From: a virus
Virus record (IMG/VR): IMGVR_UViG_3300045988_052780
Strand: one strand, 5' to 3'
DNA length: 64,000 nt
The notes below the pieces were generated by a model that was not told the DNA's origin, searched no databases, and worked only from the letters and a program-made list of their open reading frames with translations. Below are positions 31 to 28,165 of this stretch, in pieces. Position numbers and translations under genes: made by a program. The number at the start of each line of letters is the position of its first letter. Position 1 is the stretch's first letter.

Positions 31-1515
31 ATGGCTATAGAAGAATCTAAGAAGAATGGTTCCTATGGTGAAATGGCAGTAAGTACAGATGGTAGATACT
101 ATGTGATGGGAGAAGATGGTCCGGAATTAAAATCTACTTTAGAAAGAGGTGATAGAGTACTTACTAATGCAGATTTAGCTGAACTGAGAGCTAATAATGT
201 CCCATTTGCTAATAACATATCTACTACTATAGCTAATGGTGTTAGTATGGAGAGTATTAATAAGACTATTTGGGAACTTATTAGTAAAATTGGAAAGGAT
301 AGTACTTCAAAAGAATTCTTTAGAACCAAGAAAGGCCAGGATATAAAAGACGGTATTGATGAATTATTAGCTGCTGGAGAAGATGGTGTTTATAAAATCA
401 CAGAGAAGAATACAGATCAATCTAGGAAAGCTGTAACTGCTTTAAATTATTTAATCTCTGTAATGCCTACTAATGTTAAGGCATTATTAAGAGGTAAAGC
501 TGCATTAGCCGGATTAGACCCTAATAAAGGTGCTTATAAATTAGTGGCTGATATGGTTGCATCTGGAATTGACAATACTAGTGAAATTGGAATTGATTTT
601 GATAAAGCTGCTACCACTGGAGCTAATACCGATAGTAATGGTAATAAGAAGACTTTGAGTATGAAACCCATAATGTCTTATTATGCTGGAGAGAATGGAG
701 TAGAATCCACTTACATAGTAAATCCGGGTCAAGGATATCAAATGCATACTGATGCAGTTATTTATGGGATGCCATTAGACCAGAAAGGTGACGTAGTTCC
801 GCAAGGGTCATTACAATCTTTATTAAATTCAGGAATTGGAGGTATAGTTGATACTACTTCTATTTCTCTAGGAAATCAGAGAGTAGATTCTTCCAATCTT
901 GGGCAGGTACTATATGATGGCACACAATTAGCTAGGGCTATACTACCATACACATATGATGCTAATGGTAAGATTGTCCCAGATTTTGAATTAATGCCGG
1001 AATTTATAGAGGCTCAGAAAGAAATCAAGGAGCGAGGCAATAATATAACTGCCGTTGAGCTATCACAGATATTGAATACTCACAATTTAGGAGATTATAT
1101 GTATCAAAATAAAGATGGGGAACTTATATGGAATCCTTCTAAGTTCCGACCATTCCTAATGACTAATGTAATAGCTGGAGGTAGTGATAGCTGGATTGGT
1201 GGAAAGAGTGGAGTAATTGATGTAGATAAAGCAGGGGAAGGGTATATGACTAATATCAGAAGTATGCCTGAAGTAGACCCTGATAATATTAAGAATTTGT
1301 TTAAAGGTAAGTTAGGTATTACTCCAGAAAGTGAACTGTTTAGAACTGTAGCTTACATGCCTATACTTGAAAGTGCTGGTTTAGCTCTTAATGTAGCAGG
1401 TGAAGATCCAACAATTCCTGCGGATTGGGGAGATATGAGAATTATAAAAGGTAAAGCTGCTCAAGCTAAGAAGTTATCAACATTTACTGGAGCTAGTACA
1501 TCTAAATTAGACTAA
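31..1515 (+). CDS. hypothetical protein (494 aa), possibly virion-associated; first gene of the plus-strand giant-gene block
   Basis: Long ORF with a strong SD. Its stop is 2 nt before the ATG of the 2927 aa gene, which suggests translational coupling. No recognisable motifs. Confidence 0.5.
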   Translation: MAIEESKKNGSYGEMAVSTDGRYYVMGEDGPELKSTLERGDRVLTNADLAELRANNVPFANNISTTIANGVSMESINKTIWELISKIGKDSTSKEFFRTKKGQDIKDGIDELLAAGEDGVYKITEKNTDQSRKAVTALNYLISVMPTNVKALLRGKAALAGLDPNKGAYKLVADMVASGIDNTSEIGIDFDKAATTGANTDSNGNKKTLSMKPIMSYYAGENGVESTYIVNPGQGYQMHTDAVIYGMPLDQKGDVVPQGSLQSLLNSGIGGIVDTTSISLGNQRVDSSNLGQVLYDGTQLARAILPYTYDANGKIVPDFELMPEFIEAQKEIKERGNNITAVELSQILNTHNLGDYMYQNKDGELIWNPSKFRPFLMTNVIAGGSDSWIGGKSGVIDVDKAGEGYMTNIRSMPEVDPDNIKNLFKGKLGITPESELFRTVAYMPILESAGLALNVAGEDPTIPADWGDMRIIKGKAAQAKKLSTFTGASTSKLD

Positions 1516-1517
1516 AT

Positions 1518-4500
1518 ATGAATAACGTAAAGAAACCTAATGATTGGTTCATAGCGCAGATAGATAATCCTTCGTTTACTCCTGGAAATTTTAGAGATGT
1601 AGGATTAACTGCCGACAATACTGGATTATTAGATAGAAATACCTATAAGAATAGTAAATATGTCCAAGATAAATTTAAGGATGATGAAGGTAAGTTTGAT
1701 GAAGTATCCTTTAATAAAGTGTATGATGCTGCCGCTCAAACTTATCAAAAGTTTGCTAATGATGAGTTTGAGGAAAGTATTATGGATGATGCTGATTGGG
1801 ATCCTTATTCTCAGTTAAGACCAGAGGATGGTAAAGTTAGGGACATTAATTTTAATGTAACTAAAGTACTTAATCCAGATAGATTAAAGACTGGTGTATC
1901 TCAAATAGGAAGGACTGACAATAGAGAATGGACTGCCTCTGAACTAGCTCAAACTCAAAAGGTATACGACTATAAAACTGGGAAGTATAAGGAATATACA
2001 CCTAATGATAATATACTATTTGGTAATCCAGTAGGTTTCTTAGCGTCATTAGGTGAACCTTTAGTTCTTGCACAGTGGGATGAAGATGGAGAACATACAG
2101 ATCCATTTACTGGAAGAGTTGTTAAGCATAATAAGGGAGACTTAAAATATAACGATGAAGGTACTTACTACTACGAGACCCTAGGAGGAAGAGAAGCATA
2201 CGGACGTAAATTTAAATCGGCATTTGATTCATTTACTGTAGATGGTTCGGCTGCTAATAAATATGATTTCTTCGATTCTGACGGACTTGATAAATCAGTT
2301 ACTGGTACTGTAATGAAGACAGTAGCTGCAATAGCTCCTCTATTTGTTCCCTACGTTAATACTGTATATGGAGGTGCCATGATTGGTGCTCAATTAATGG
2401 ATATTCTTCCTACAATCTATAAATCCACTATAGGATTAAATCAAGACACTCCTACTGCCAACTTATTACAGGGTATAGGCAGAACATTTAAAGGTTCTAA
2501 ATCTGAATATTCTCAGCAGAACTTAATTTCAACTGAGAACTTCTTTGATTTAGTGACGGATGTAGCTTTGCAGTGGGCACAGCAGAGAACTATATTCCAA
2601 GGTATTCATAAATTACTTGGAACAGAGGCTAAACAAAGAGCTGCTTTAGCCAAAGCAGGAGAAGAAGCTGCCGAAATATTACTTAAGAATCCAGAGAAGT
2701 ATAAGAACGTAGCTGGCAGTGTCATAGAAATGAATCAGCTAAAGGCTGCTAAAGCGTTTGAAACCATTCTTAAGAGAAATAATAGAATGGCAGCAAATAC
2801 TGCACTTGGTTATATGGCAATGATGCAGGGTTTAGAAACCTTTGAGGATGCTATCGGCCAAGGAGCTACTAGAGCTGAAGCAGCTGCTATTGCATGGGGT
2901 GCTGTTGCGGGCATGTATGCAGTTGATAGAACTGGTCTTGGCGAAATATTCTTCCCAGAACTTAAGACTTCCGTACCTGCTTACAGACAAGCAATTAAAG
3001 AGGTTGCAGAGGAAGTTAATAAGGGATTCCAGACATTAGCTAAATCTAATATACCACAACCTAAGAAGCTAGCTAAATTCTTTGATACAGCTAAAAAGAA
3101 GTCTTCCGACTATTGGTCTGATGTTAGAAATCATACTACTGGGTTTGCTCAGAAGATGCTTACTGAAGGTCTAGAGGAAATGTCCGAAGAAGCTGTAGTT
3201 GACTTAGCTAAAGCTACATTTAACTGGGCCCAAGAAATGGGCTTTACTGAGAGCAAGAATAAGTTAAATGCTGGAGAGAATGCATTTGAAAGATACGGAA
3301 TGAGTTTCTTCGGAGGAGCTATTGGTGGCGCTATATTTCATGGTGTAGATGTGGTTAATAATCATAGAGCTACTAATGAGCAAACTAATCAAGAGCTTAT
3401 ATATCTAATCAGAAATGGGCGTACTAATGAACTAATAGAAGAGCTTAATAATCTTAAGAAGAAGGGTAAATTAGGTAACAAGAATCTATCTGCTACTAAG
3501 ACTGAGGATACAAAGGAAGGTACTGTATGGACATCTCCTACTAGTGGAGCAGACAATCAAAATGAAGCAGTGTACAATCTCACTAAGAGCTACTTTCAAC
3601 ATCTAGATGCTGTTATTAACCAAGAAGGTATGGGACTATCCGACGAACAGCTATTAGACAAGATGGTAATGAGTGATGTTAGAATGAAGGCTTTAGCTAG
3701 CATTGAGGTATCCGATGGTCAGAAATTCGGTAAGGCTATTCTTAATGGCTATAATGGTAAAATGCTTCAAGATTTTAATACCCTTACTTCTAAAATAGTT
3801 GAGAAACGCAACGAAATAGCAGATCTGGAGCATAAGACAAATGACACAGACAAGAAAGGGTCAGTTTATCAAGCTGATTTACAAAGACTACAGCAAGAAT
3901 ATTCTGATTTACAACTTCAAAAGCAGAAATTCTTGGACGGTTCATTCTCTGAGTATTATACAGATCAAATGTTGTTTGCTATAGATAATTTAGCCAATCA
4001 TCAGTATTACGCAGCTACATTTAAGGATTTTGCTGAATTTGATACTAAACAGAACTTCCAGGATTTATCAGAAGAACAAATAGAATCTCTGAAACCTAAA
4101 TACGAAGCATATCTGAAGCAAGATAAGATGGAAGCTCTAGATGCTGCTTATGGTATATATAAGAAGGTTAATAAAGAGTTCTCTAACAAGCTTCAAGAAG
4201 GTAGTATCTCAGTTGATGAATATTACAAATTTAGAAAGGAAGTATTCTCAACTATGATTGATTTAAAGGCTACTATAGATAGACTTAATCTGGAGGATGT
4301 TACTGAGCAAGAACTCCAATCTAGATTTGGAGTAGACCGTAACATTGACTGGGTTCTTAATAAGAAGTTTACTAGACAAGTATTTGACAGAAAGGACAAC
4401 GAATCTGATGAAGAGGCTGAAGCTAGGTTACAACAAACTGAACTGTACAACCAAGAAGTGTTAGGAAGAGTTCAAGGAGTAATTCAAATGGCACAAGGCT

Positions 4501-7500
4501 ATGGATTTATGGATGCCGAGACTAAAGACTTACTACTTAGTGTTCTTGGTGATAAAATCTCTAACGAACGAGCAGTTATGACTGTTTTAGGTAATATGTT
4601 CGCTAATGGGATTATTAGTAGAAACGTCGATGCTAGTGGTAACTTACTTCCTGATCCATTGATGGATAAACTAATAGAAACATTAGAGAAAGTTAATGGA
4701 GAGAACTTAGAAGACATAAACAAAGAAATCCATGATGTTATTAATTCTGAAGAGTACAAGAAACAGCTTGTTAATGCAACTTTAGATTACTTTGATGCTA
4801 TAGGAGAATACTATGAGTCTGAAGATGCAGATAATGTTATGAAGTACACTGAAGAGCGTATTAATAACATGGAGAAGATATATCAGGATGCTGCTAAAGA
4901 AATAAATAACGAAGTACTAGCCAACCCGTACAATGCAACAGTATTGCAACTACGTAGTGATGTGCTTAAACTTAAAACTAGTCCAGTGTATGATTATCTT
5001 CAGGATTTTACTAGAACTGTATTCGGAAGCACTTCTAATATTATAGACCTTATAGAGAATGAGCAACGAAGATTTGAGGCAGCTCCTACTATATCTGATT
5101 ATGTTTTAGATGGCAACAAAGAGAAGGAAATAGAAGATGCTATTACAGCAATTAATATGCTTAAATCAGTAATCTATTCTAGTTCTACTGCTGATTTGGA
5201 TATTGATAGGCCATTTGGACATAATGCTCTTATGAACCACTTCTTAGAAACATACTTCCCTAAAGAAGAGAAATATGGAGTTATTAGGGACGATGTAGCA
5301 GCCATGATGAATATAGAATTGGATAAAATTATTAATCAGTTGCTGTTCTTAACTGATTTATCTATAATGAATGGGGTAAATCAGTTTAGTAAACATGCTA
5401 GAACTGGTCAAAAGATATCTAAATTGCTATACGATGTATTAAGAGGTAATGGTAAATATGGATTCCTAAAAGACTTAGAATATAACGGAACCAAGTTATT
5501 TGCAGGTCTAGATGAAATATCTACCCCAACCTTGGACAATATTGACGAAGCAGCTTATGATAATCCAGCAATATCCGTCGAATTGGCTAACTTACAGAAT
5601 AAGCTTTATGATACTTTCCATAAAATAGTATCTGAAAGTGGAGAATCAGTAAGTACAGTACTTAAAGCTATGTTCTCTAATTTAGGGGCTAAATTCAATA
5701 TGTCTAGTTTAGTAAATCAAAATAACACTAGGTTTAGCCCGGAAACGGAATATATAGAAGACTTTGATATTTATATGTGGTTGCATGCCACATTAGCATT
5801 TAAGAAGTCTGATTTTGATTACTATTTAAGAGAGACTCTTGCTGATTCAGAAGCTACCTATGCTCCCTTATTTGCCCAAGAATATGCTGCTTACATGTCT
5901 ACAGCTATGGCAGTTAACCCAGAAGTAATGAATGCTGCCATAGATAATATTGATGTTCCTAAAGGCCAACCCGGTAGTGAATTACTAAAGTACTTCAATA
6001 CTGTAATGGTTAATGGTATCGGAGGTGCTGGTAAAACAGCAGTAATTGCTAAGTTGGTACAGGGAATTGTTACTAAAATTAACCCTAATTCTACTGTGTG
6101 GAAGGTAGGTCCGTCTGAGCAACAAGTTAATAATTTGGTAAGTTCTCTAGGAAGTGATGGAAAGTCTTTTACTGTAGAAGGTTTAATGAGACATGTCTTA
6201 GGTGATGAGACTTATGGTGAACTTAGTAAGGACATTAATAGCTCTAATACTGAATCTAAATTATATGACTTGGTAGAATTTAATGAACTTAAGCAAGGAT
6301 ACACTGTAGCAGTTGCTAAGTCTGATATAGAATATAGTGATAATGCTACTCCTAGATTGCTGTTTATTGATGAAGCTACTTGGGTTAATAGCGTTTATAT
6401 GCAATTCTTATCTGATTGGGCATCCAAGAATGGTGTTACAATAATACTATTAGGGGATTTAAATCAGAATGGATATGAGAATGTAGAAACTAGTATATAC
6501 AATGTTAAACCAACTGAAGCATTAACGGTTAGAACTCCTAAACTGGATATTAGCTTACGTATTACTAATGTTCAGAAAGACGATAATAATAAGCAGGTTA
6601 ATGCAATTCTTAGTAGGATCAACTTTAACAAGGATAATGTGACCGCTGATAATGATGCAGAAGTTAGAGATAGAATATTCAATGAAATTACTAGTAATTT
6701 AATTCTGAAACATTATCAAGACGATGACAATCCACTAAATGGAGAGAAGATAGTAAATGAAATTTCAGAGGAAGATATTAAGGCATTATTGGAAGCTGAT
6801 GGTGAAATAGGTTATGTATATGATAATGAAAACTCTCCTACATATCAGTTAATTCAGAGAATGAATGATAGTAGAATCAAGGTATACACTCCTAAATCTG
6901 TACAAGGCTCAGAAGCTGCTCACTTCATTATTGATGTAGACTTTGCTAAATACGATTCTACTGACTGGGCAGACCTTATTAATTTTGCTAAATCCTTCTA
7001 TACTATGATGTCTCGTTCTAAAGAAGGAACTTACATTATTAATAATGGATTATCTGCATATGTAAAAGAGAAGAATCTTATTAAGGAAGATAGAACTTCT
7101 GTAACTCCTAGTCAGGAACGTATTATTAACACCTTCAAAGAAATCAGAATGGCTGCTTTGGATTCAGAATTGGAAGGGTATACTCCTTCTCCAATAAATT
7201 CTGAAGAGACATCTCAATCTCCTGAACCAGCTGCTAAAGCTGCTCCTTATACACCTAAAAGTCCTTCCAAACCTAAAGGAGATAATCCTATAGAGAATGA
7301 GTTATTAGGTAACTTGGATGGAAAGAAGACTACTGTATTAGATTCAGAAATAGAGGGTGTTATGTCTGGAATTAGGGCTTATGGATGGTATATGAGATAT
7401 GGTATGTTAGAGAATGAGGACGGAACATTTGATAGAGTAGTTAAAGATGATATTATAGATGATTTAAACGTCTTTACTAAAAATGGAATTCATTATACTG

Positions 7501-10301
7501 CTAATCAATTGATTACTCCTAAATCATTATTGGTGGATATTAGAAACTACCTAACATTTGGTGAGAAGTTTGATGAAGATTTCTTACAGAGACTGTCTGA
7601 TAGTGGTAATGCATATTTAGCTAAGTTAGGATTAGATGTATGGAATAATGGAAGTTTCTATCTTGAAGTTCGTAAAGACGATACTAGTACCACTGGAACA
7701 GATATAGCTAGAGACAAACAAGGTTATGATAAGACTAAAGTAGAGTCTACTGCATTTAATATTGTTTACAGAGTCAGTATAGATGGAGGTAAGGATATTC
7801 AGTTTACTATGGGTAAACTTACTAATCCAGACACTTGGCAGAAATGGGATAAAGCTCATGGTAACAAGTTAGATGCTGCTATATCTAAGTATAGGAAGTG
7901 GTATAAGAACATGCAAGAATGGTCTAATTCTAATCCAACATCTTCTAAATACTTTAAAATCAATAAATCTGACATTACATTCTCTAGGGCAACTAGACTA
8001 AAAGAGGTACCAGGTCAAACTTGGAATCTTAATGAGTTACAAGAAGCCTTTCCTAATGCTCTAATAAGTCCTATGTATGGATATACTGGACAGGGTGGTG
8101 TAGCTATGATCGATAAATCAGTCAGAGGTAAAGGTATAGTATTTGCAACTACTAATAAGCATCTCAAAATAGACGGGGAGAAAGTTACTGAATCAAATCT
8201 AGCAGATATGTATATCAAAATGCAGAAGAAGAGAGCAAGAGCATTTGATGAAGCTAAATCAAGGGGTCTTTCTAATGAAGAGGCAAATGCAGAAGTTGCA
8301 GATAGAGTACCGCCAATCATTAGAGCTATAGTAGCTACCCCTAATGGTTCATTTATAAATGACTACTTTACATTATCATTCAGTGATTTAACTAGTACTG
8401 ACGATGATGGCAAGAGTAAACTTGATATACAGCAGGTTAAGGACTATATAGGTACATATGGAAGTAATACTACAGCGGCTAGAATGTTAGTAGCATTGTG
8501 GAATTATCGAGCCGGACTTAACAACTTCTTAGATGCTTATAAGACATATATGTCTACTAATAATCTGAGTGAAGTAAGGGGACAGACTGAAGTTGATAAG
8601 TTCAATGGACTGCTAGACCAATCTGTAGTTAATGGGGCTAAAAGAGTTCCTTGGAATCCTTCTACTTATAATGGATTTATGTTTAGACTTACTTATGCTG
8701 ATGCTATTAAGGCTAATGCTCCAGGTATGGTAGTTAGACCTATAAATCTTAGTGAGAATGAATGGAAAGAATTCAATGCAGGCAGTAAAGTATCTAGAAA
8801 ACTTACTTATGGAGTATATATAGATCCAGCAGTTGCTAAGGCTCAATATACTATATTAAATGAAATATTTGATGTTTTAGGTAAATACATTTCACTTCCT
8901 AAGGATACTAATTTCACAATTAGAACAGAAGGAAGAAATATGGATAATATCCTAGAGCAACTTATATCTGATAATGGAGAGATAGAATTCAGTGATGGAG
9001 TAAGAACTGTCAAACATGCAGCCTCAGCTTTAGGAAATATGGGAGGATCTTTTAAAGTTGTTAGTTTGCTATCCTCTATCTATAAGATGTACACTAAAGG
9101 TTATAAAGCAGGTGATGCTTATTCATTTACTGCAAAAGGACCGGATGGTAAACCTATAGAAACTAGACTAGAAGCAACTAATGTTCGCATAGGTGAAGCT
9201 GTCAGAGATGCAGGTAGGACCAGTGCTTTTTCTGTACTTAATAATATGTTCAATGTTATATTACATGGCACTCCAACTATTAAGGAAGGTGCTCCTACTA
9301 CAACATATGCTCCATTTATAGATGGAATATTCTATACTCCAAGATTTCAGACTTCTCATGACAGTCAACCCTCAGATTTCTATCCCACTAGAAATAACTT
9401 AGATCAGTTCCATATAGATGTAGCTATAGAAAGTCCTAATTTCGAAATTACTATAGACCCTACTGGTTTAAAAGAAGTAGAATTTAAGGATGATATATTA
9501 CATGCTAAGAGAGACGAATTTAACTCCAGAATGAATTTGTCAACTATGGGAGCTCTGTCTAATGTAAGTGGATATGAATCCTTACAGGATTTAGCTGACA
9601 GAGCTAAATCTAGATATGAGACTGAAGGGGATGCTGCTATTAATGATATCATTAAAGAGTATAGTAGCTCAGTAGCTGTCAAGCTTTCTGATGCAGTTAA
9701 TAATAGACAATTAAAGATGAATAATGACACTGTATTAAGTATTTATACTACAGTTCTTGACACTGGACTATTAACTATAAATAGTTATTCTACCCTGTTA
9801 GATGAAATAAATAAGAAGAGTCCCTCTGTACTACCTAAGAAAGTAGATGGTTCTATTGATAATTCTGCAATTCAGAATGTTGAATATAATGGTAGTAATC
9901 TAGAGGAATTTACAGTAACTTTGCAGGGAGGACAAACAATAAAAGGTTCTATTCTCGATGGTAAAGTAGAAATTGCAGATACAACTATGTATGAAATTCC
10001 ATTTGATCCAACTAGAGAACAGAAGTTAAAGATATTCGCAGATACACTTAACGATTTTGATAATCTTAGGGAATCTGAAATTGCTGACTTAATTAACACA
10101 TTAATGTCTCTATCATCAGTAACTCCAGAGCAGGCTCAGGCTATATTGGATAAAGCCAAACTAGTTGACAGCCATTTTGAAGGATTATTGACTGATGAGC
10201 AGTTAGACAATGATGATTTAATTGACGTGCAAGAATACATATCTTCTTTAGCTTCCAATAAGAACATTATTGATAGTCAAGGATGTAAATTTAATATCTA
10301 A
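1518..10301 (+). CDS. giant protein (2927 aa) with an internal SF1B helicase/ATPase domain; candidate virion-packaged or ejected protein
   Basis: Uninterrupted 8.8 kb ORF. An internal region carries Walker A GIGGAGKT, Walker B LLFIDEAT, motif III ILLGDLNQ, motif V KSVQGSEAAHFII and motif VI FYTMMSRSKEGTYII. Confidence 0.7.
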   Translation: MNNVKKPNDWFIAQIDNPSFTPGNFRDVGLTADNTGLLDRNTYKNSKYVQDKFKDDEGKFDEVSFNKVYDAAAQTYQKFANDEFEESIMDDADWDPYSQLRPEDGKVRDINFNVTKVLNPDRLKTGVSQIGRTDNREWTASELAQTQKVYDYKTGKYKEYTPNDNILFGNPVGFLASLGEPLVLAQWDEDGEHTDPFTGRVVKHNKGDLKYNDEGTYYYETLGGREAYGRKFKSAFDSFTVDGSAANKYDFFDSDGLDKSVTGTVMKTVAAIAPLFVPYVNTVYGGAMIGAQLMDILPTIYKSTIGLNQDTPTANLLQGIGRTFKGSKSEYSQQNLISTENFFDLVTDVALQWAQQRTIFQGIHKLLGTEAKQRAALAKAGEEAAEILLKNPEKYKNVAGSVIEMNQLKAAKAFETILKRNNRMAANTALGYMAMMQGLETFEDAIGQGATRAEAAAIAWGAVAGMYAVDRTGLGEIFFPELKTSVPAYRQAIKEVAEEVNKGFQTLAKSNIPQPKKLAKFFDTAKKKSSDYWSDVRNHTTGFAQKMLTEGLEEMSEEAVVDLAKATFNWAQEMGFTESKNKLNAGENAFERYGMSFFGGAIGGAIFHGVDVVNNHRATNEQTNQELIYLIRNGRTNELIEELNNLKKKGKLGNKNLSATKTEDTKEGTVWTSPTSGADNQNEAVYNLTKSYFQHLDAVINQEGMGLSDEQLLDKMVMSDVRMKALASIEVSDGQKFGKAILNGYNGKMLQDFNTLTSKIVEKRNEIADLEHKTNDTDKKGSVYQADLQRLQQEYSDLQLQKQKFLDGSFSEYYTDQMLFAIDNLANHQYYAATFKDFAEFDTKQNFQDLSEEQIESLKPKYEAYLKQDKMEALDAAYGIYKKVNKEFSNKLQEGSISVDEYYKFRKEVFSTMIDLKATIDRLNLEDVTEQELQSRFGVDRNIDWVLNKKFTRQVFDRKDNESDEEAEARLQQTELYNQEVLGRVQGVIQMAQGYGFMDAETKDLLLSVLGDKISNERAVMTVLGNMFANGIISRNVDASGNLLPDPLMDKLIETLEKVNGENLEDINKEIHDVINSEEYKKQLVNATLDYFDAIGEYYESEDADNVMKYTEERINNMEKIYQDAAKEINNEVLANPYNATVLQLRSDVLKLKTSPVYDYLQDFTRTVFGSTSNIIDLIENEQRRFEAAPTISDYVLDGNKEKEIEDAITAINMLKSVIYSSSTADLDIDRPFGHNALMNHFLETYFPKEEKYGVIRDDVAAMMNIELDKIINQLLFLTDLSIMNGVNQFSKHARTGQKISKLLYDVLRGNGKYGFLKDLEYNGTKLFAGLDEISTPTLDNIDEAAYDNPAISVELANLQNKLYDTFHKIVSESGESVSTVLKAMFSNLGAKFNMSSLVNQNNTRFSPETEYIEDFDIYMWLHATLAFKKSDFDYYLRETLADSEATYAPLFAQEYAAYMSTAMAVNPEVMNAAIDNIDVPKGQPGSELLKYFNTVMVNGIGGAGKTAVIAKLVQGIVTKINPNSTVWKVGPSEQQVNNLVSSLGSDGKSFTVEGLMRHVLGDETYGELSKDINSSNTESKLYDLVEFNELKQGYTVAVAKSDIEYSDNATPRLLFIDEATWVNSVYMQFLSDWASKNGVTIILLGDLNQNGYENVETSIYNVKPTEALTVRTPKLDISLRITNVQKDDNNKQVNAILSRINFNKDNVTADNDAEVRDRIFNEITSNLILKHYQDDDNPLNGEKIVNEISEEDIKALLEADGEIGYVYDNENSPTYQLIQRMNDSRIKVYTPKSVQGSEAAHFIIDVDFAKYDSTDWADLINFAKSFYTMMSRSKEGTYIINNGLSAYVKEKNLIKEDRTSVTPSQERIINTFKEIRMAALDSELEGYTPSPINSEETSQSPEPAAKAAPYTPKSPSKPKGDNPIENELLGNLDGKKTTVLDSEIEGVMSGIRAYGWYMRYGMLENEDGTFDRVVKDDIIDDLNVFTKNGIHYTANQLITPKSLLVDIRNYLTFGEKFDEDFLQRLSDSGNAYLAKLGLDVWNNGSFYLEVRKDDTSTTGTDIARDKQGYDKTKVESTAFNIVYRVSIDGGKDIQFTMGKLTNPDTWQKWDKAHGNKLDAAISKYRKWYKNMQEWSNSNPTSSKYFKINKSDITFSRATRLKEVPGQTWNLNELQEAFPNALISPMYGYTGQGGVAMIDKSVRGKGIVFATTNKHLKIDGEKVTESNLADMYIKMQKKRARAFDEAKSRGLSNEEANAEVADRVPPIIRAIVATPNGSFINDYFTLSFSDLTSTDDDGKSKLDIQQVKDYIGTYGSNTTAARMLVALWNYRAGLNNFLDAYKTYMSTNNLSEVRGQTEVDKFNGLLDQSVVNGAKRVPWNPSTYNGFMFRLTYADAIKANAPGMVVRPINLSENEWKEFNAGSKVSRKLTYGVYIDPAVAKAQYTILNEIFDVLGKYISLPKDTNFTIRTEGRNMDNILEQLISDNGEIEFSDGVRTVKHAASALGNMGGSFKVVSLLSSIYKMYTKGYKAGDAYSFTAKGPDGKPIETRLEATNVRIGEAVRDAGRTSAFSVLNNMFNVILHGTPTIKEGAPTTTYAPFIDGIFYTPRFQTSHDSQPSDFYPTRNNLDQFHIDVAIESPNFEITIDPTGLKEVEFKDDILHAKRDEFNSRMNLSTMGALSNVSGYESLQDLADRAKSRYETEGDAAINDIIKEYSSSVAVKLSDAVNNRQLKMNNDTVLSIYTTVLDTGLLTINSYSTLLDEINKKSPSVLPKKVDGSIDNSAIQNVEYNGSNLEEFTVTLQGGQTIKGSILDGKVEIADTTMYEIPFDPTREQKLKIFADTLNDFDNLRESEIADLINTLMSLSSVTPEQAQAILDKAKLVDSHFEGLLTDEQLDNDDLIDVQEYISSLASNKNIIDSQGCKFNI
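6000..7045 (+). other. embedded Dda/RecD-like SF1B helicase domain within the 2927 aa protein (approx. aa 1495-1840)
   Basis: The full ordered set of SF1 helicase motifs is read directly from the translation. The same motif order is seen in the stand-alone Dda helicase at 54444..55808. Confidence 0.7.
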
Positions 10302-10307
10302 TAAGAA

Positions 10308-13300
10308 ATGGCATGTACTAACTTTGACATAGGGCAACACAGACTTGATGCTGAGGTTGCTCTAAGAAGTACAGTATTAAAGTTTAGGAAAGAGCCAGTA
10401 ATATCTACTGCTAATTTCATAGACGACTTCTACAACAGTTTGAAGAATACTGGACTATTTAACCTGGAGAGCGAGGCAGAATATGTCTCGCTTTCTGAGG
10501 TTCTAGAAGATTTTGTTAAAACATCCAGAAGATTAACAGATGCACAGAAGGAACAATTATTAGCTGAATATGCTGTACCGTTAAGTTCCAAATTCAGTAT
10601 TAATCCGGAAACCTCTACAGTAGAGGAAGTTGACAAGAGTCTTGTCATTAAAGACGAACCTGAGGACATTCAAGTAATTGAAGAACCATTGGAGAGAAGA
10701 GTTGCAACTCCATCCATTAGTGATATTTACGGTTCTGCTTCTGTAGTTAAGGAGTATATGCTGAATCAGTTTAGGTATAATATTATAGAAGCATCATTAG
10801 TTAATTTTGCCGACGGTAGACTTATTAAGAGCAATGATGATTTAAATGTTTATATTGCTAAATACAAGAATACCTTATTTAAGAAATTAGTCGACTATAT
10901 TAAATTAGCTAATTCTGAAGAAGGTATAGAAACTGATGCATCTATACTAGATACTATTTACCTAGATGGAATTCCTAATGTAGAGAATATGCAGAAGGTT
11001 CTGGATGCCGCTTCTAGTATATTTGAAAACATATCTAAATCTGCGTTAGACAGTGCATTCGTATCTAAGAAGAGAAACATAGAAGGATTCTATAAGAATC
11101 AGATGTTAGTGGATGGATTCAATGCATGGGCTGTTCTATCTAACGGTAACTTCGATACTATTCTTAAAAGCTTATTCGGAAAGAATATGGAAATTAGGAA
11201 TAGGGGATATGTAGGAATAGAACTACCTGTGAGCACTAATAAATACCAATTTAGATCTGGTTCTAATATGGTTAAAACATGGAGAACTAATGAGAATGTA
11301 GATGCATTATCTGAAATAGGTAATGTGTCTAGATTACTTATTGAACAAACTCCTGTAATTAATCATGTTACTGGAGAGCAGATAGGTGACAAGTATTTAA
11401 ATTTGAAACAATTCGTTCACTCTTTTAGCAAGATTAAAGACGAATACAACTTTATGTTCTTTGGGGAGAGACTACAGGATTTAGTTTTAAATTTACATTC
11501 CGCCCCTAATTATTACTTAGGAGAAATTCTTAAGGAAATATTAAATAGTGATACTAGGTCTAAGGTATTCCAAGTAAACGATCTTAACGTATTTAAATCT
11601 ATCTATGATAAGTTCTATAACAAAGATAAATTCAACTCTTTATATAATATTGCAAATAGAGACTATCTTACTTCTAAAGCTATCACTACTTACGATTTGT
11701 TAGATTCTATATCTGGAGTTGTAGATAGAACTAACAATGCCAGATATGTAGAATATGCTCTTAATAGTGATACTAGAGATTTGGATAGTTCTGAAATTAA
11801 GCAATCTAATGTAAATAGACGTAAAATACAGAGAGAGAATGATATTGATATTGCTAACGAACTTATGGCAGATAGAACTGGCCTATTAAATAGGTGGGGA
11901 ATATCTGTTAGTAACGCTACTACTGGCGACGTCTCTTTTACTTTACCATATAAAGGAGAAAAGGTTACTGTAATTTATAACAGCAATGCAGTTAGTAGTA
12001 AAGGACAAAGAAAGCTTGAATTATCAAACTCTGATATCGTTAAATTTGGAAGGCTAAATACTATATTAGAAGAACCTTCATTTACTAAGTTAAAAGCTAT
12101 ATATGAAGAGAACAATCCACAGGTACTTACTGATGGAGAAAGATTATATGTATCTTTAATAGAATTTATAGATGACTTTGCTAATACAGGATTCTTAAGA
12201 GGTAATGTAGATTTACTAGCTGCATTTAGAAATGTAAATGAAGCTAATAATCTTGATTATCTTGATAAATTAGTAGCTGTTGCAAGCAGTTCTGCATTTG
12301 TTAATACAGTATATGATGGATATGAAAATAATCCTGAGAATTTATCATTACGTTCGTATATAGAAACTCTGAACTATTACAATGAGAAGTTAGGAGATAA
12401 TAATGAAAGGTTCTACTACGATAAAGCCTCAAACTCATTAAAGGCTATTAGACCTAATTTAATTAATATACTTAATGATATTGTAGCAGCTGAACAGGTA
12501 GTAACTGGAGAAATATATAAGTCAGTTATTAAGAATGCTGAAGGTAATAATATACCTAACAGCAGGATTGCTAACTTAGCTGGACTGACTAGGAGCTACG
12601 TTAAAAAGCATATACTTGATAATCCTAGTTCTGCTTTAAAGAATACGCTATTTGGACGAAATCCTAATATGCTAATGGGAACTTCCATAAAAACTGATGT
12701 AGTTAGTAGAAATGGAATAAAGAAGAGTGCTACTAAGTTCTCGGTTGCAGAAATAGGATATTCTTCGTTAGTATATGACTTCTATGGAAACTTATTAAGA
12801 CCAAAGAATGGCAATGCACCTGTAACTATCAATGTACAACCTACTGTATATTCCGATAAGGGAACATTTGTAATGTGGAAGCTTGGTGTAGATAAGATAG
12901 ATGTACTTGATGAGAATGGTAAGCCATTACTTATTAATTTACTTACTTCACCTACTAAAGACATTATTAGTGCTATCAAAGGAACTGTAGGAACTTACTA
13001 TAAGGAAGTATTCAATAATGTATTGGGTGACTATAAAGAAGTATACAGACAATCTTTAGAGACATACTTACAAAGATTGCAGGCTATTAATCCTGAGGCT
13101 GCAAACAGAATACTATCTAAACAGAGTAAAGTAGATGCTGAGAATGCTAAAATAGCTAAACATAATGAATCTCTAGATTCAGAAAGAAACAGACTGTTAC
13201 AAGCATTAGATGCAGCACAAGCAGCTGGTGATTTTATGGATGCTAGTAGCATAGTAGATGCTTTAGACTCTCTTGATATTAAAGAACCAGTTTCATTAGT

Positions 13301-16300
13301 AGATGTACTTGACTACCAAGACTTTACTAATTTATTAGCAGTTACTACATCAGGTGAGTACACTAATATGTCTTATGCTGCTGGAGTCCCTAATATTGAT
13401 AACGTTCACACTAATACAGGAGGGTCATTTGAACTCAATGGCAAAACTAAGAAAGGCCTGATTCCTAATAAACTTTTAAACTTCCTTGCTACAGAAATGT
13501 ATGCTAAAGAGGATGTGTTTAACAAAGCTATGCTTAGAGAACGTAAGAAGTTTGTTAAGGACATGATTGACAATAATATGTCATTCCCTTTAGTATATGC
13601 CAACGGACGTAGTAATACAGTTCTTAGAAAGGCTGCGGATAAGTTATTAGGAGCTGATAAAAGACTATGGGTAAATGAGAATACTCAAGAACTTATATTA
13701 GCTAAACAGGGTAATACTAATATTACTAGACTATCTGATTTAGATAGTAATTGGTTAAGAGATGATGTAGAAATTACTCTAAATCCTCTAATTGAAAGGT
13801 ACTTTGTAGCTGATTTCTTAACATCAGAGAACCTTAGACTAGTAACTACTGGTAGTAGCATTGCACATCCAAATAAAGCTAAATATGGTAGTTTAGATCC
13901 TGACTCATTTAACGGAATAGAAATGGAACACTCTTCTAGAGAACTTGCTGAGTTAAAACGTAATGTGATTGTACCAGCTACATTACAGTATCTACATCAG
14001 AATAGTTTGACTGGAGTACCACCCTGGTATAGAATAGCTGTAATGAGTGATGTCGGAGCTCCTGTATATAACTTTAAAGGTGAAATTGCAGAAGTGGATG
14101 CACATGACGGTTCTGCATGGTGTAATCCTATTATGTCTTATTTGGAGAACTTATCATTACAAGATTCATCTGTAGGAGAAGATAAGAAACCTATTGGACA
14201 TGATTATAATGGAAGATATGGTACAGCAGCTTTATTAAAGTTTGCTACCTTCTCTGCTTACAATGAAAGGCTTCGTCAATCATTAACATCAGACATTAAA
14301 TTATATAATTTATTCAAGAAGATGTCTGATTTTAAATGGAGTGAATCAACAGCTGATTGGGATGTTCCTGCTAATGTAGACCTTACTGTAAATTTATTTG
14401 GTCAGCCAATGACTCTAAGAGATGTCACTGGAGGTGATAGAATATTTTACAGAGACGGTAACAATCATTATGAGATACTAGGACTAGACAAAGTAGGAAA
14501 TGGACTGTATAATATTAGTAAGCAGTTGGTAGATATAAATGGAAATCCAATACAAGCAGTAGGTGCCGCTAATGTATTAATTGATACTAACGTTCCAATT
14601 AATTCTTTATTTGAATTACATGCTGCTTTAGGAGGAGTTTATAGTGAATCACTTAGAGATGGAGAACTTGCATATAGCGATGCTTCATTAGCCGTAACTG
14701 CTACTTATGTTAATAATATAGGACAGTATAAAGCCAATGGAGACATACCTACTCAACGCAATACCAACCAGCCACTCAAATATAAAATGATTGCTTACTT
14801 AGTTAATAAGTCTGCAATCAAAGTGGGAGCTCAAAATATAAATCCAGATAGCTCTTGGTATGATGATTCTCCATTAATGACAATGCACTTTAATACTGAT
14901 GGCTTAGGTATGCAGATGGATGCTGACCACGTAGTTACCGACCCAGAACATCAGTCAACAATGACCGAGTTCTCTCAGGTAATTTCAGCTCTTGAATCTA
15001 TGGGATTTACTCATGATATGGCTAAGAATGCATATAAAAGCTTAGGTAAAGTTGCATTAGCTTCTATAGGTAATATTAAAGAAGCTGTATATGTTCTTAC
15101 TGGAATAAAACCTACTGATAATCCTGATGTTAAATCAGACTTGTATGAGATATTTGGTAAAGCTATTATTAAGGAATTAAATAAGAACAGCGATGAATTA
15201 GGAACTGCCAAAACTATCATTCAGAAAGCTAAGGAGGAGTTTGCTTTAGATAGGAAACGTAGAACTTCACATGGAGCTGACGCTTATAAGATTCCTTATA
15301 GTGATCCTTCTATATTTGCTAAGGCTTTATCTACATTTACGTCCAACATCAATAAGACTGCTATTAAAAGAAAGTTCCCAGGTATGGGTGCTGTTATGGC
15401 TCCTGGATATAATATCATACAGGTACATAGAATTGGAGGGCAGAATTATAGATATGACGATTTATATCGAATTGCAGCTGATGAAGGAATATCAGTAGAT
15501 GAATACTTACAAAGAGAGCAGGCTAAAATTGAATCTGAACCAGCTAATTCTATTGATAGATTACTACCTGGAGATAGAATTAAAATACCTATCCAAGAAG
15601 TGGCTAGTGTAGTTGCCAAGATTAATAGTGACGCTACTAGAAATAAAAAGTTTGCCGAATTAGAAGTTGGCAAGTATACTAGACTAGTAGATCAAGCTAA
15701 TAGAGGAGACGGTGAAGGGGTTGAACTATCTAAGGCTCAAGATAACCTTAATAAGGCACTGTCTAAGTTAGAGAGACTAAATAGAGATATAGCATTAACT
15801 GTACCTCAGTTCTTGGAAGATAATGGATGGAAACTCGAAGGAGAGTATATGTTAGTATATGTAAACGATTATGATTCTTATAATTTCGTCAAGAAGAATT
15901 TCTCTACATTTTATACTGACATTACTAGACCTACAGACTTGAAACCTGCCGAAATATACTGGGATGATGCAACTGGCAAGAGACATAGTATATTCGATAT
16001 GCCAGCAATACAAGCATCGTTTACTGAACGTAAGAAGTATAAGAAGCTTCCTAAAGAAATAGGAGCTAAATTACAGGCTGATGTTCAGAATACATTCATG
16101 TTGCTAGATAAAGGGTATATGACTGCTACTGAAGATATGTTATTGGAATATAATCAAGATCCAGTAGCATTTAGCAAGAAATACGTTCCGGAAGGTAGAT
16201 ACTTAATGGAACTGCCTAATGGTAATATAGCTATTCCAATTCAAAATCTAGTTAATAATCCTGCTGAATTAGTAATTAGTAAGTTATATGTTAATCAATT

Positions 16301-17078
16301 TAATTTAGGTCCTAATGATAGTATTAATGATGTACTTACACAAGGATACCAATTCTTCGTTAATAAGTATGATAAATATCATACTCCTAAAACTAAATTA
16401 TTTGATATAGCATTTACTAGAGGAAGTGGTAAACACGTATATATTGCATTTAATACATCTACTACTATCATAGATAAGCTATCAGCTAATAAAACTCTTA
16501 CTGACGATGACTTCATGAGAGTTGGAGATAGTATCTTTAGAATAGATAAAGATGGCAATAAATTATATGAAAGCGGATATTACGATGCTGAAGGTAATTA
16601 TCATGAGTTGGTAACATCCTATAATGCGATTGATGGTAATTCTGTTGAAGAAGTTTTAGTTGTTAGTACTCCCGATAATGTAATGGATATTTATAAAACT
16701 GACGATTTTGATTCCATTAAAATTAGTCAATATATTAAAGACAAGGCAACATTACAAGGAGTTATAGAACAGGGTAAGGACAGAAGTGACAGATTATTGA
16801 AAGGATTATATGACACATATACTAAAGCATTAGTTAAAGATGATTTTAGCGTATCTAAAATAGCTTATGAACTAGAGGCTTTAGAGAAATCTAGAAAGAT
16901 TACTGCTGCTAAGAAGAAGTTTGTATCATTCCAGAAATCTCTTGAATTTACTGTAGCTCGTATTCCGGCACAGACTATGCAATCATTTATGAAGATGAAA
17001 GCAGTAGCATTTAATGATTCTGATAAGAATGTGGTACATGTATCTCACTGGCAAACTTGGCTACAGGGAAGTGACTAT
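10308..17078 (+). CDS. giant protein, exon 1 (2257 codons); continues in exon 2 after a group I intron
   Basis: The ORF runs to TGA at 17079-81. The last exon nucleotides GACTAT (17073-78) can pair with intron guide sequence GTAGTC (17121-26), giving a U.G wobble at the splice site. No motifs recognised. Confidence 0.6.
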
Positions 17079-18152
17079 TGACCTAATTTTAACTGTTTAG
17101 TTAGGTGACATATTAATATTGTAGTCACTATAATAAATCTCGTGAATTGACGGGGAACTCCTTAGAGCTTAACCTACTAAACTAGAGTAGTAATACATCT
17201 AGTGGCGGCAATTAACTATTGTTGGTAAAGTAAAAAAGGTTAAGATTGGACAATCCGCAGCTAAGCATCCTAGATAAATATTTGGATAATAAGACTAGTT
17301 AATTGACAAAAGTTTTAATATCTTTGTGTTTATAAGGATGAAAGTTCATCGACTATCCCGTAAGGGAGTAGGAACTTTTATCTAATGTTTAACTCAAAAT
17401 ATTAGGTAAATGGCTAGAAGAATAACAAAGAAACTTAGTAAAGAACAAAAGAGCCTACTTATAGGCCTTCTTTTAGGAGATGGAACAATATCTAGTAATT
17501 ATGTATTCAAGCTAAGTCATTCTGAAGCTCAAAGAGAGTTTCTAGAATGGAAGATAGACTTATTAAACAAGTTTGGGTTTAAGAACAATGGTGTTAAGGA
17601 GTATATATCAACATGTGGATATAATAAAGGAAACAAAGTTTTATACTCTCAGATGTCACTTAACCCAACTATAAAAGCCTTAAGGAGAACAGTCTATACT
17701 CCTAAGAAACATATTACTAGAAGATTATTGAATTGGCTTACCCCTATCGGGTTAGCTATATGGTATATGGATGATGGTTGTATAAACGTAAATACTTCAA
17801 AACAGCGTAGCTCAATACAACATACAATCAAAATAGCTACGTGTGTTGATTTAGATACAGCTCAAGTAGTAATTGATTATTTCAAAGAAGTTTGGGATGT
17901 GCAATTTAGACCTTTTAAAGAAGGAAAGGGAACTTATTCTATTGCTAGTTCCACTGAATCTGATTGTGCAGCGTTCATACAAATTATACGTCCATATATA
18001 GAACAGGTTCCATCATTACTCTATAAAATTAGAGATAACTTTACTAAAGAAGAATTTATAGCACAGCAGAAAGCTGGTTCCGAAGTGCGAGACACTCTAG
18101 AGATAGAGTGATGATATAGTCAGTCTCATATTGAAAGGTATGAGGTTAAACG
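17079..18152 (+). mobile_element. group I self-splicing intron (T4 td/nrdB-like core) carrying a LAGLIDADG endonuclease ORF in the P8 region
   Basis: Conserved core elements are present. P is GAATTGACGGGGAACTCC (17144-61). Q is AATCCGCAGC (17252-61). R is GTTCATCGACTATCCC (17344-59). S is GATATAGTC (18113-21). A P9 hairpin CTCATA/TATGAG follows, then terminal G at 18152. P1/P10 pairing is consistent with splicing 17078|18153. Confidence 0.7.
17410..18111 (+). CDS. LAGLIDADG homing endonuclease (intron-encoded)
   Basis: Two LAGLIDADG motifs are present: LLIGLLLGDGTIS and LAIWYMDDGCINV. The ORF lies between the R and S core elements of the intron. Confidence 0.85.
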   Translation: MARRITKKLSKEQKSLLIGLLLGDGTISSNYVFKLSHSEAQREFLEWKIDLLNKFGFKNNGVKEYISTCGYNKGNKVLYSQMSLNPTIKALRRTVYTPKKHITRRLLNWLTPIGLAIWYMDDGCINVNTSKQRSSIQHTIKIATCVDLDTAQVVIDYFKEVWDVQFRPFKEGKGTYSIASSTESDCAAFIQIIRPYIEQVPSLLYKIRDNFTKEEFIAQQKAGSEVRDTLEIE

Positions 18153-23535: not shown

Positions 23536-26500
23536 TGGCTTGTACATACAGTTTAAATATAAATGGTCAAATACAGCAATTTAACGATTATGCTGAATTG
23601 TTTGACTTCTTAATAGGACATAAGAACCAAATTGAAATGGGACTTATATCAGATATTGTGTTTAGCCAAGACACTAAGCAGTCCGAAATGGTAGCTAAGT
23701 TAAGATCTATTAAAGCTACCGCTAAACTCAACAGCAACGGAGTAGACCCTGTATCTGGTGATATTGTGTACAAAGCAGAAGGTTCTAACATGTCAGTTAC
23801 AGATTTCTTAGAAACTGCTACTATTACCAAAGATTCTAAAGAAACTTTCTTAGGACAGCCGTTCAGTATTAAGAATTGGAGAAATAATACTATAAATGAA
23901 TTGGTATCCAAGGGTATGACTCATGCTGAAGCTGAAGAGCAGGTTAATAATATTATGGAAATGTGGGAGAGGATAGCAGATACTGGCGCTGAATTACATG
24001 CTGTTTTAGGTGATTACTTTGCCGGTCATATGTCATTAGAAGAGCTTATAGATAAGTATGCTGGAGTATTTAGTGAACAAGCTGTCAGGAGTATATACAA
24101 GAATATGGCATCTTTTAAAGATGAAATCTATAAGGCACATGGACAGGACGCTAAACTACTGCCTCAATTTACTATAGATTCTAAAACATTGGATGGAGTT
24201 AATATAATAGGTTCTATAGATTTGGTAGTGATAGGTGAGGATGGTCAACCGCATTTATATGTCTTCAAAAGTTCTGCAAAGTTGTCTGATAGGTGGGATG
24301 CTGCTAAGCAAACTAAGTATGATTACCAGTTAGCTTTCTATAGACAAATGTTAGCTTCCAAAGGTATTCCTGCTGCTAATATGGAACTGAATATAGTACC
24401 TATGCATCTGGAAGGGCTAGAGGATGGGGAATTAACTGGAGTTAGCTTCGAAGGAGTGCAAGACAGAACTAAAGATTCTGGAGGCACCATTAATAGACTA
24501 GCTTGGGGAGTAGGTGAATTTTATAATAATGTGAGTTATGCAATTCCAGTAAGACTTACCGATGAAACTATAGGGGAATCTATTAGAGATAATGTACTAG
24601 ATACTCTTAGTAAGTTTATACCTAATCCTAAGATTAAATCAATTAGAGAGCAAATTGATGTAGATGCTTTTATTGCAAATCATGTTTATGATTCTCCGAA
24701 TCCCTCTGAGGGCAGATGGTATTTTAAAGATTTCTACAGTAAAGGAAAGCCTATCTATATCAAAGAAGATTCACCTAAAGAGAAGAATGCGGAACTTAGA
24801 GTAGAAGTAGAGAAATACCTAAATAAGATGGTTAAGAATCATAGACTTAAGACTAACAAATTTATCTATGATCTTAAAAGAGCCATTGATGGTAAAATTC
24901 CGTTGGAGGATGTGAGTCCTACTACTGGATATACTACTAATGCCTTTGTAGTAACTACATTCCAGAAATATGTTAACGATCCAGGATGGGAATTAGTAAA
25001 TATAGAAGCACTAAAACAATTAGGAATTGTAGCTATTAGTAATACTATTACCAAACAAATTGATTTTATTGCATTAAGCCATCATGATTTACATACTGAA
25101 CTTAAGCTATCTTTAGGAACTACAATGTTAGGAGAACATGAAAAGGACGCATATGCTCTTAATAACAAAATGATATTATTGGCAACTAATGGCAATATTG
25201 AGTTAATGAAGATAATGGCTGCCATTAATGAGATTCCTAATGCATTAACTGATGTATTTAAAATAGGAGACATTAAGGTAATTAATACAGAAGACTCTAA
25301 AGCTACCACTGCTACTTCAAGACAGATAAAGGAAACATTTAATCTGTTAGCCAAAGCAGCTAAAGTTAATAATAATATTAACAAATTGTCCTTTATGGAT
25401 GAATTGGATGTTATTAAGAATGAGTTCCTAGCTTTGATGAACAGACCTAATGGTAAACTTACTAATAGTTTGTCTAGAGATATAGAGGCTTTATCTAAGG
25501 AATTATTCAACATTAATACCGTAAATAAGAATGAGATAGCCAATAGACTAATAGCCCTAGCTAGAAGGATGGAGAATGGAGAACGTCTTGGTAAGATAGT
25601 TGGAGGTTCTCTAGAATCTATAGCTAATGAATCTTCTAACACTGGAATAGAAAGACTATACAAGTCAATATTACAGGCTATAGCTTATTATAAAGGATTA
25701 GACTTCCTTCAACCTAAAGAGATTTCTAGATATACACAGAAAGGAACTCCTTTATCTGGAGGTATGATAACTAATCCGGATTTATTTCCAGAGGATAACT
25801 TACGCCAAATTACTCTTGCTGTGAGAGGTGCATTTGATAACGTTACTAGAGAAATGACTCCTTATCATGAGAAATTCCTTACCGGATATGTAAAACCCTT
25901 ATGGAAAGATAAAGGTTACAGTAATGCCAGAAACATTGTTATAGGAGATCAGGTTAAGCTGTATAATAATTTCTTTAGAAGGAATTCTGACGGAAGTCTT
26001 AATAATAAGATGTTATTTGTAGATCCTTATGATAGCAGTACTCCACTTACTTCAGAGGAAAGACGATTCTTAAAGCAAGCACTGTGGCTTATAAACCAAG
26101 AAAGATTCCCTAATATCAGAAGCTTGTCTGAAGATAGCGAGACGGTAAAGCAACTTAAGAAGACCGAGAAGTGGTTCTGGGTTCCTCTTATGGAAGCCAA
26201 TAATCAGATTCTACAAATGGGAATTAGTAAGTGGATTAACCAAGAAGTAAAGGACGTAACTGGAAGATTTAAGGATTATTGGAATAGATCCCAAAACGAT
26301 GCTTATAGTGATAGGGAGTATAGTGACAAACAGAAAGTAATTACTAGGTACGAAATGTACAATAGATTTAATTTATCAGAAGCCAGTGAGGAAGCTAGAG
26401 ACGCCTTATTAGCTGAATATAAACCAGATTTCTGGGAACGTAACATAGAGACCCTAGTAACTACTTATAAGTTTGCATCAGCTAGAAAGGAACAATTGGA

Positions 26501-28109: not shown

Positions 28110-28117
28110 TAAAAAAA

Positions 28118-28160: not shown

Positions 28161-28165
28161 TATTA

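Follow-up and report, generated by a model that had tools for sequence, protein, structure and literature searches.

The closest described counterparts of the gene studied here, which encodes a 2927-amino-acid (aa) giant protein with an embedded helicase domain and lies in a 64,000-nucleotide (nt) stretch of viral DNA (IMG/VR record IMGVR_UViG_3300045988_052780; the whole stretch is called the window below), are an orthologue in the Zeta crAss-like phage Lera and the cargo giants of other crassviruses. In PhicrAss001, the proteins encoded past the tail muzzle gene (gp45, gp46, gp47, gp49 and gp50) were found in virions by mass spectrometry and are believed to reside in the capsid until they are ejected; these virions carry cargo proteins of 262-277 kDa whose ejection is expected, which sets a precedent for size (PMC10172136). 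Gp65-67 of phage phi14:2 are likewise virion proteins, and the recombinant virion RNA polymerase (vRNAP) of that phage, gp66, is efficient on single-stranded DNA (ssDNA) and on denatured DNA and weak on native double-stranded DNA; QDE-1, to which it is structurally related, depends on RPA and on the helicase QDE-3 (bioRxiv 10.1101/2020.03.07.982082). P1 DarB and the DarB-like "polyvalent" proteins of Bcep22 and JC1 are likewise late-gene giants with a helicase-type ATPase that are proposed to accompany DNA into the host, and the 4515 aa DarB-like protein of JC1, a Bcep22-like phage, was detected in virions by mass spectrometry (PMC9144972).

Virion giants with helicase-type ATPases and crassvirus cargo giants beside the vRNAP were already known, and the helicase domain of the present family had been noticed by automatic annotation, in the 2025 supplementary table of Lera and in UniProt. 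Literature searches found no earlier description of a superfamily 1B (SF1B) helicase as a constant part of a giant that the cargo block encodes immediately before the vRNAP, and full-text searches found no paper discussing the giant's architecture, conservation, context or function. We report that the giant carries a real and complete Dda/RecD-type (SF1B) helicase with an intact, strongly conserved catalytic site, and that its gene is constantly linked to the vRNAP gene (75 of 80 loci).

Architecture and helicase domain of the giant protein

The giant open reading frame (ORF) occupies 1518..10301 on the + strand, runs from ATG to TAA without internal stops and encodes a protein of 328 kDa with an isoelectric point of 4.9. 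Given the base composition (35% G+C, with a stop expected about once in 14 codons), a stop-free run of 2927 codons has a chance probability of ~1e-93. A preliminary description of the window had reported a single 8.8 kb ORF with a complete, ordered superfamily 1 (SF1) motif set, and this was confirmed: the five motifs that it quoted lie at residues 1500-1841, and motifs I, Ia, II (DE), III (GDxxQ), IV, V and VI (arginine finger) were all located in order (Table 1) and are invariant in alignments of 35, 60 and 44 sequences. AAA_30 (E 6.5e-8, residues 1496-1652), Viral_helicase1 and AAA_19 all scored above their curated Pfam cut-offs, together spanning residues 1495-1698. Against PDB sequences, phmmer and an hmmsearch with the family profile returned weak matches to motifs I-Ia only (IGHMBP2, Upf1 and RecD; E 0.003-0.05) in addition to chance matches.

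Residues 1400-1900, which had been singled out for structure prediction, were modeled with AlphaFold2 from an alignment of 25 homologues, and the tandem RecA-like fold was obtained (mean predicted local distance difference test, pLDDT, 88.6; predicted template modeling score, pTM, 0.87). More than 275 residues of the two RecA-like domains (1A and 2A) superpose on Dda and RecD2 at 3.1-3.2 Å, and the model is structurally nearer to SF1B than to SF1A enzymes. The Dda/RecD-like SF1B assignment of the preliminary description is borne out. The model also predicts a hairpin (strands 184-189 and 196-201) between motifs Ia and II, and an insert between motifs IV and V that would consist mostly of two long helices together with strands; at the position of the SH3/tower insert of Dda, the giant is predicted to have two long helices (model residues 286-328). 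The best structural matches in BFVD were two orthologues, A0A8S5RTY8 and A0A8S5TKT5 (E 1e-30 with a template modeling score of 0.78, and E 7e-24). The labels found in UniProt and BFVD, "RecD-like protein [Siphoviridae sp. gcode 4]" and "Helicase [Podoviridae sp. ctz6O13]", are automatic ones only. Identity to T4 Dda and Deinococcus RecD2 (PDB 3upu, 3e1s) is only 16%, and we conclude that the embedded domain is a new, divergent member of SF1B; its polarity on ssDNA would be 5'->3'.

Dda and RecD2 are free enzymes of 440-720 aa, and a replicative or accessory Dda would be expected as a free-standing protein of ~440-500 aa among replication genes. Here the domain is embedded, at residues ~1415-1885 of 2927, and the gene lies in the late cargo block rather than in the replication block. 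The stand-alone Dda that the preliminary description had placed elsewhere in the window is real (Table 1), and its resemblance to the embedded domain is confined to the motifs, on which ground an origin of the embedded domain as a recent duplicate of the phage's own Dda was rejected. The embedded helicase is not the replication helicase, the phage having its own Dda among the replication genes on the opposite strand, and on this point too the preliminary description holds.

The N-terminal domain has weakly hydrophobic segments, rich in glycine and alanine, at residues 166-184, 265-283 and 595-613, and gave no match in Pfam, PHROG, NCBIfam or PDB. A disordered linker separates the helicase from the C-terminal region of the giant, which yielded a confident model yet no solved structural relative. 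Domain scans and structure comparison found no methyltransferase and no second enzyme domain in the giant, nor was a nuclease fold detected; the whole protein matched nothing in PHROGs or PADLOC and had one NCBIfam match, far under the cut-off. The only cysteine of the giant, C2923, is close to the C-terminus (five residues away) and is kept in at least 90% of homologues, and the helicase domain has none.

A word-indexed search recovered 734 homologues, the best 120 of which are all 2767-3308 aa in length, on contigs of up to ~190 kb. A full HMMER (phmmer) scan with the N-terminal 720 residues, covering 1.84 billion representatives, yielded 947 clusters at 50% identity, 499 of them at E <= 1e-30; among the 150 members listed of these 947 clusters the domain is always N-terminal, and all but ~12, which are probably truncated, are 2300-3600 aa long. 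The 90%-identity cluster of the giant has 1632 members. Independent metagenomes of the human gut contain an identical giant on contigs of 180-184 kb, as does an IMG/VR contig of 182.5 kb (L017), and this exact protein was recorded in 61 blocks of the metagenome collection. Against 50,697 phage records, tblastn matched only two unannotated gut contigs, MT835470 and MT835492. Two alignments, one of 35 close relatives and one of 43 remoter ones, span identities from 65% to 21%; invariant in both are G1503, G1505 and K1506 of Walker A, D1618 and E1619 of Walker B, Q1650 (motif III), R1681 (IV), G1797 and E1799 (V), and T1829 and R1833 (VI). Overall, the catalytic residues are unchanged in ~95 homologues, with identities as low as 21%. 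Conservation is highest in the N-terminal 700 residues, followed by the helicase and then by the C-terminal third. The invariance of the helicase residues and the shared architecture therefore indicate strong purifying selection on the enzyme as a constant element of this protein. The helicase model was also matched (E 5e-10) by BFVD entry A0A7M1RVD7_4, which is fragment four of a very large protein annotated "DNA helicase" in another crAss-like phage (uncultured phage cr118_1), and helicase-bearing giants may therefore exist in other crassvirus groups.

Gene order and composition of the late block

The phage is a crassvirus of ~182 kb from the human gut and, judged by gene order and gene content, most probably belongs to the Zeta group. 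In a 64%-identical relative, the genes upstream of the giant include those for the tail muzzle protein of crassviruses (PF25731) and for a DUF192 protein. In Lera (PV725988; supplementary gene table, PMC12386605), the muzzle gene is followed by DUF192, a "RecD-like protein" (8346 nt), a hypothetical gene (6321 nt), a homing endonuclease, a "DNA-dependent RNA polymerase", a second hypothetical gene and an "exonuclease V" (4614 nt). Positions 1518-28109 of the window have exactly this order from the "RecD-like protein" onward, the Lera gene of that name being the orthologue of the giant in the same place; the muzzle and DUF192 genes precede the window start. On its opposite strand the window encodes PolA, Dda, ligases, NrdD, and tRNA-repair and NAD-salvage enzymes, a content that agrees with the published description of Zeta genomes (PMC7886860). 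On contig L017, which is from the same phage, the 606 aa gene directly upstream of the giant is itself preceded by genes for a 1615 aa protein that lacks cysteine, for a protein of 104 aa and for a DUF192 protein.

The helicase region is covered by 80 loci from IMG/VR and Logan, in which gene order was counted. Every one of them carries the helicase; a vRNAP homologue follows directly in 75, the 606 aa gene precedes the giant in 73 (also given as 73 of 82 loci), and the order around the giant is maintained at identities down to 22-30%. Within the window, 2 nt separate the upstream stop from the giant and 6 nt separate the giant's stop from the vRNAP start, and a scan from 9500 to a hairpin at 28117-28161 revealed no strong terminator-like site. 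This hairpin, of 20 pairs followed by a T run, lies between the convergent blocks at the point where GC skew flips sign, and is likely a bidirectional terminator.

The preliminary description had assigned the giant to a virion or cargo-like block, correctly so, as the gene lies between the tail muzzle and the end of the late block, beside a vRNAP with the DxDxD motif, in what is the post-muzzle cargo or "transcription" block of a crassvirus. The identity of the next gene as an intron-split vRNAP had been missed; this adjacency suggests that the giant acts in DNA entry or early transcription. The six proteins of the + strand block (1-28109) contain 10 cysteines in 8989 aa (0.11%), against 184 in 8710 aa (2.1%) for the 31 proteins of the opposite block (28166-63505, - strand), which is 19-fold richer (Fisher p 3e-44). 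In the verified PhicrAss001 cargo proteins gp45-gp50 the count is 7 in 7478 aa (0.09%), and in the muzzle 10 in 1371. The giant shares this marked cysteine depletion with proven cargo proteins and with the neighboring vRNAP.

The preliminary description had proposed a comparison with cargo proteins of crAss-like phages, which was made with PhicrAss001 gp47, gp49 and gp50 and phi14:2 gp65-gp67. The post-muzzle, vRNAP-adjacent position, the very large size and the near-zero cysteine content are shared, but no sequence similarity was detected, and the PhicrAss001 proteins are verified in virions whereas the giant is known from its gene. Orthology of the giant with the PhicrAss001 cargo proteins was not upheld, hhalign and BLASTP both being negative. 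Since the giant lies in the post-muzzle block and is depleted in cysteine, and since its helicase is not replicative, an ejected protein is a reasonable reading; we infer from position and composition that it is packaged in the virion and ejected.

The split vRNAP gene and other genes of the window

The vRNAP gene that follows the giant is interrupted. Its first ORF (10308..17081) ends ...WLQGSDY, and the frame resumes with DIDKAYVMGYDFD after a LAGLIDADG gene. The uninterrupted vRNAP homologue in a relative (L002) reads GSDYDIDKAYIMGYDFD, PhicrAss001 gp50 reads SGSDFDVDKLYIM, and the phi14:2 form of the catalytic DxDxD motif of crass vRNAPs is DFDID (bioRxiv 10.1101/2020.03.07.982082). It follows that 10308-17078 and 18153-21104 belong to a single vRNAP gene, which codes for 3240 aa. 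The sequence predicts a group I intron that splits this gene exactly inside the active-site motif DYDID. The intron has no counterpart in six relatives of ~70% identity (L002, L007, L011, L013, L016 and L018) and is present in others. The equivalent gene in Lera is annotated "DNA-dependent RNA polymerase" (PMC12386605).

Two further proteins are encoded in the cargo block (Table 1). The 809 aa protein may be a cargo-processing peptidase, as its motif suggests; a motif scan found HEAFH at residue 2157 of PhicrAss001 gp47, near the C-terminus, and phi14:2 gp65 has been described as zincin-like (bioRxiv 10.1101/2020.03.07.982082). The 1526 aa protein has a weak BLASTP match to the PhicrAss001 cargo protein gp49 (E 0.011), and the Lera equivalent of its gene bears the label "exonuclease V" (PMC12386605).

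On the - strand, the anaerobic ribonucleotide reductase gene nrdD is in two pieces (59369-60496 and 57679-58488) with an HNH endonuclease ORF (58478-59224) between them, and a GIY-YIG endonuclease ORF (56758-57540) adjoins the pieces; the region 56758-60496 (-) suggests further introns or inteins. An RNA-repair and cofactor cluster extends over 29212-49632 (-) and includes polynucleotide kinase (45425-46351), RNA ligase (48244-49632) and a CCA-adding enzyme (46746-47540), with cofactor genes on the same strand for an amidotransferase-like fusion (29212-30144), NAD synthetase (32282-33271) and a nicotinamide phosphoribosyltransferase-like protein (33585-34763).

Table 1. Features of the giant protein, its helicase motifs and the genes discussed (residues are those of the giant unless stated; Cys, cysteine).
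Feature	Position	Strand	Remarks
3' part of 606 aa gene	31..1515	+	0 Cys; start before window; stop 2 nt before giant ATG
Giant, N-terminal domain, residues ~1-700	1518..3617	+	Best conserved part, family hallmark
Giant, variable middle region, residues ~701-1414	3618..5759	+	Column conservation 0.25-0.45; no Pfam or PHROG family match
Giant, SF1B (Dda/RecD2-like) helicase domain, residues ~1415-1885	5760..7172	+	Motifs, Pfam, AlphaFold2 model
Q-motif-like APLFAQEY	residues 1449-1456		
Motif I (Walker A) GIGGAGKT	residues 1500-1507		
Motif Ia GPSEQQ	residues 1531-1536		
Motif II (Walker B) LLFIDEAT	residues 1614-1621		
Motif III ILLGDLNQ	residues 1643-1650		
Motif IV ISLR	residues 1678-1681		
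Motif V KSVQGSEAAHFII	residues 1793-1805		
Motif VI YTMMSRSKEGTYII	residues 1828-1841		
Giant, disordered Pro/Ser/Glu/Lys-rich linker, residues ~1886-1950	7173..7367	+	pLDDT <50 at the end of the helicase model and the start of the C-terminal model; length varies across family
Giant, C-terminal alpha/beta region, residues ~1951-2927	7368..10298	+	Confident prediction; ends with near-invariant C2923
vRNAP exon 1	10308..17078	+	Ends ...WLQGSDY inside catalytic DYDID; begins 6 nt past giant stop
Group I intron (predicted), ~1.07 kb	17079..18152	+	Sub-threshold Rfam match at 17925-18143 (RF00028, 28.5 bits, E 6e-5)
LAGLIDADG homing endonuclease ORF in intron	17410-18111	+	Pfam LAGLIDADG_2, E 7.6e-26
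vRNAP exon 2	18153..21104	+	Begins DIDKAYVMGYDFD
809 aa cargo-block protein	21106..23535	+	HEFAH at its residue 649; possible zincin-like peptidase
1526 aa cargo-block protein	23529..28109	+	N-terminal PD-(D/E)XK nuclease domain (its residues 133-278); PF12705, E 3.6e-5, above cut-off
Stand-alone Dda-like helicase, 454 aa, 6 Cys	54444..55808	-	phrog_325, E 1.5e-76; replication block

Possible roles of the giant protein

The reading that we prefer, and to which we give slightly less than an even chance, is that the giant is a Zeta-type crassvirus virion cargo protein whose co-ejected SF1B helicase opens or pulls in the genome for an ssDNA-preferring vRNAP; gene linkage, composition and template preference all point this way. 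The giant would be made late, alongside the structural proteins and the vRNAP, would be stored in the capsid, and would leave it unfolded through the tail, ahead of or together with the DNA. Once in the cell, the central SF1B module would hydrolyze ATP and travel 5'->3' on one strand of the entering genome, most likely opening the duplex so that the co-ejected vRNAP could begin early transcription. The same translocation could assist DNA internalization and strip bound host proteins, and the conserved N-terminal 700 residues might serve in packaging, ejection or anchoring. As the vRNAP of phi14:2, the one crass-like phage tested, is poor on duplex and good on ssDNA, a co-packaged helicase would be of use to such a polymerase. 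A narrower version, in which giant and vRNAP form a two-part, virion-delivered machine for early transcription, the giant unwinding the genome and feeding ssDNA to the two-barrel polymerase and perhaps also acting as a motor that draws in DNA, we think rather unlikely as it stands. The Neurospora pair QDE-1/QDE-3 offers a possible parallel: QDE-1 belongs to the same two-barrel class as the crass vRNAP, works preferentially on ssDNA and relies on a helicase. QDE-3, however, is a RecQ (superfamily 2, SF2) helicase, cellular, a separate protein and with no link to virions, and the analogy serves as a lead only. The firmly established part of the argument is an intact SF1B helicase gene next to a vRNAP gene; the later steps, including cooperation of the giant with the vRNAP, we infer.

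Several observations weigh against cargo status and a vRNAP-assisting role. Adjacency of genes is no proof of physical or functional coupling. In the papers searched, neither a cultured Zeta crassvirus nor a virion proteome of one was found, the group being known from metagenomes only. In hhalign, the family profile aligned to the single sequences of gp45, gp46, gp47, gp49 and gp50 with a probability below 1%, although a profile-to-sequence comparison has little power here, as even the vRNAPs of PhicrAss001 and the window align at the catalytic motif only. Because no similarity to the PhicrAss001 cargo was found, the case for cargo status is one of position and composition. PhicrAss001 gp47, gp49 and gp50 contain neither a helicase domain nor a Walker A motif, and since crassviruses of other families have no recognizable helicase in these proteins, a packaged helicase is not a general need of crass vRNAPs; the helicase giant characterizes this lineage rather than crassviruses as a whole. 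Within the giant, transmembrane helices in the N-terminal domain were considered and rejected, the Kyte-Doolittle peaks of 1.37-1.43 being under the usual threshold, and no function could be assigned to the C-terminal ~1000 residues.

Dda-type helicases are able to displace DNA-bound proteins. Displacement of this kind would also suit a DarB-like anti-defense cargo, a giant that would travel in alongside the DNA and protect it in cis against restriction or other defenses aimed at nucleic acids, for example by coating it, remodeling it or displacing host enzymes. The location and composition of the giant are cargo-like, and packaged giants with helicase domains do exist (P1 DarB, PMC5512222; the JC1 DarB-like protein, PMC9144972). 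We nevertheless consider this role, which the preliminary description had raised, improbable. DarB combines an adenine methyltransferase with a SWI2/SNF2 (SF2) ATPase and acts against type I restriction, whereas the ATPase of the giant belongs to SF1B and not to the SWI2/SNF2 type that defines the DarB pair (PMC5512222), a fused N6-adenine methyltransferase domain is lacking, and the linkage is to the vRNAP rather than to Dar-type accessory genes. Anti-defense genes, moreover, usually vary among relatives, and the architecture of the giant is constant in the 150 listed representatives of the 947 clusters. The suggested comparison with DarB-type proteins therefore lent no support to a DarB-type anti-restriction role. 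A similarly low probability attaches to a late intracellular helicase that is not packaged at all and is merely located in the late operon, where it would serve replication-coupled recombination, concatemer processing or genome packaging. Phage SF1B helicases (Dda, RecD-like) normally do serve replication and recombination, the packaging of the giant is itself a deduction, and homology to proven cargo proteins is not detectable. The phage, however, already encodes a conventional Dda among its replication genes, and the giant is wedged between cargo-block genes and the vRNAP by its short spacers (2 and 6 nt), in an order held down to 22-30% identity. Its one cysteine in 2927 aa also contrasts with the average of 2.1% in the phage's cytoplasmic enzymes, and an intracellular role would hardly account for its size or for an N-terminal domain unrelated to replication proteins.

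The PD-(D/E)XK domain of the 1526 aa protein in the same block raises a further alternative, in which the giant and this second giant, 13 kb downstream, form an ejected helicase-nuclease weapon like RecBCD or AddAB that degrades host DNA or processes ends at the onset of infection. The Lera labels for the two genes, "RecD-like" and "exonuclease V", would fit such a pair (PMC12386605), but the latter is an automatic annotation label, the two domains reside on separate proteins with the vRNAP and another gene in between, and the giant itself has no detectable nuclease fold. Crassviruses without the helicase giant still have a PD-(D/E)XK nuclease in the structural block (PMC7886860), and we regard this alternative as very unlikely.

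A whole and very diverse crassvirus lineage (947 clusters at 50% identity) retains a catalytically intact SF1B helicase within a giant protein. The giant is a concrete candidate, and an expressible one, for how an ssDNA-preferring crass vRNAP reaches a duplex genome. If the narrower, two-part reading is true, the giant would supply the duplex-opening factor that crass vRNAPs have so far lacked, and the two proteins would be a phage counterpart of the QDE-3/QDE-1 pair. As a packaged protein it would also bring an enzymatic class of a new kind, an SF1B helicase with no methyltransferase, into the set of capsid-carried, injected proteins of phages.

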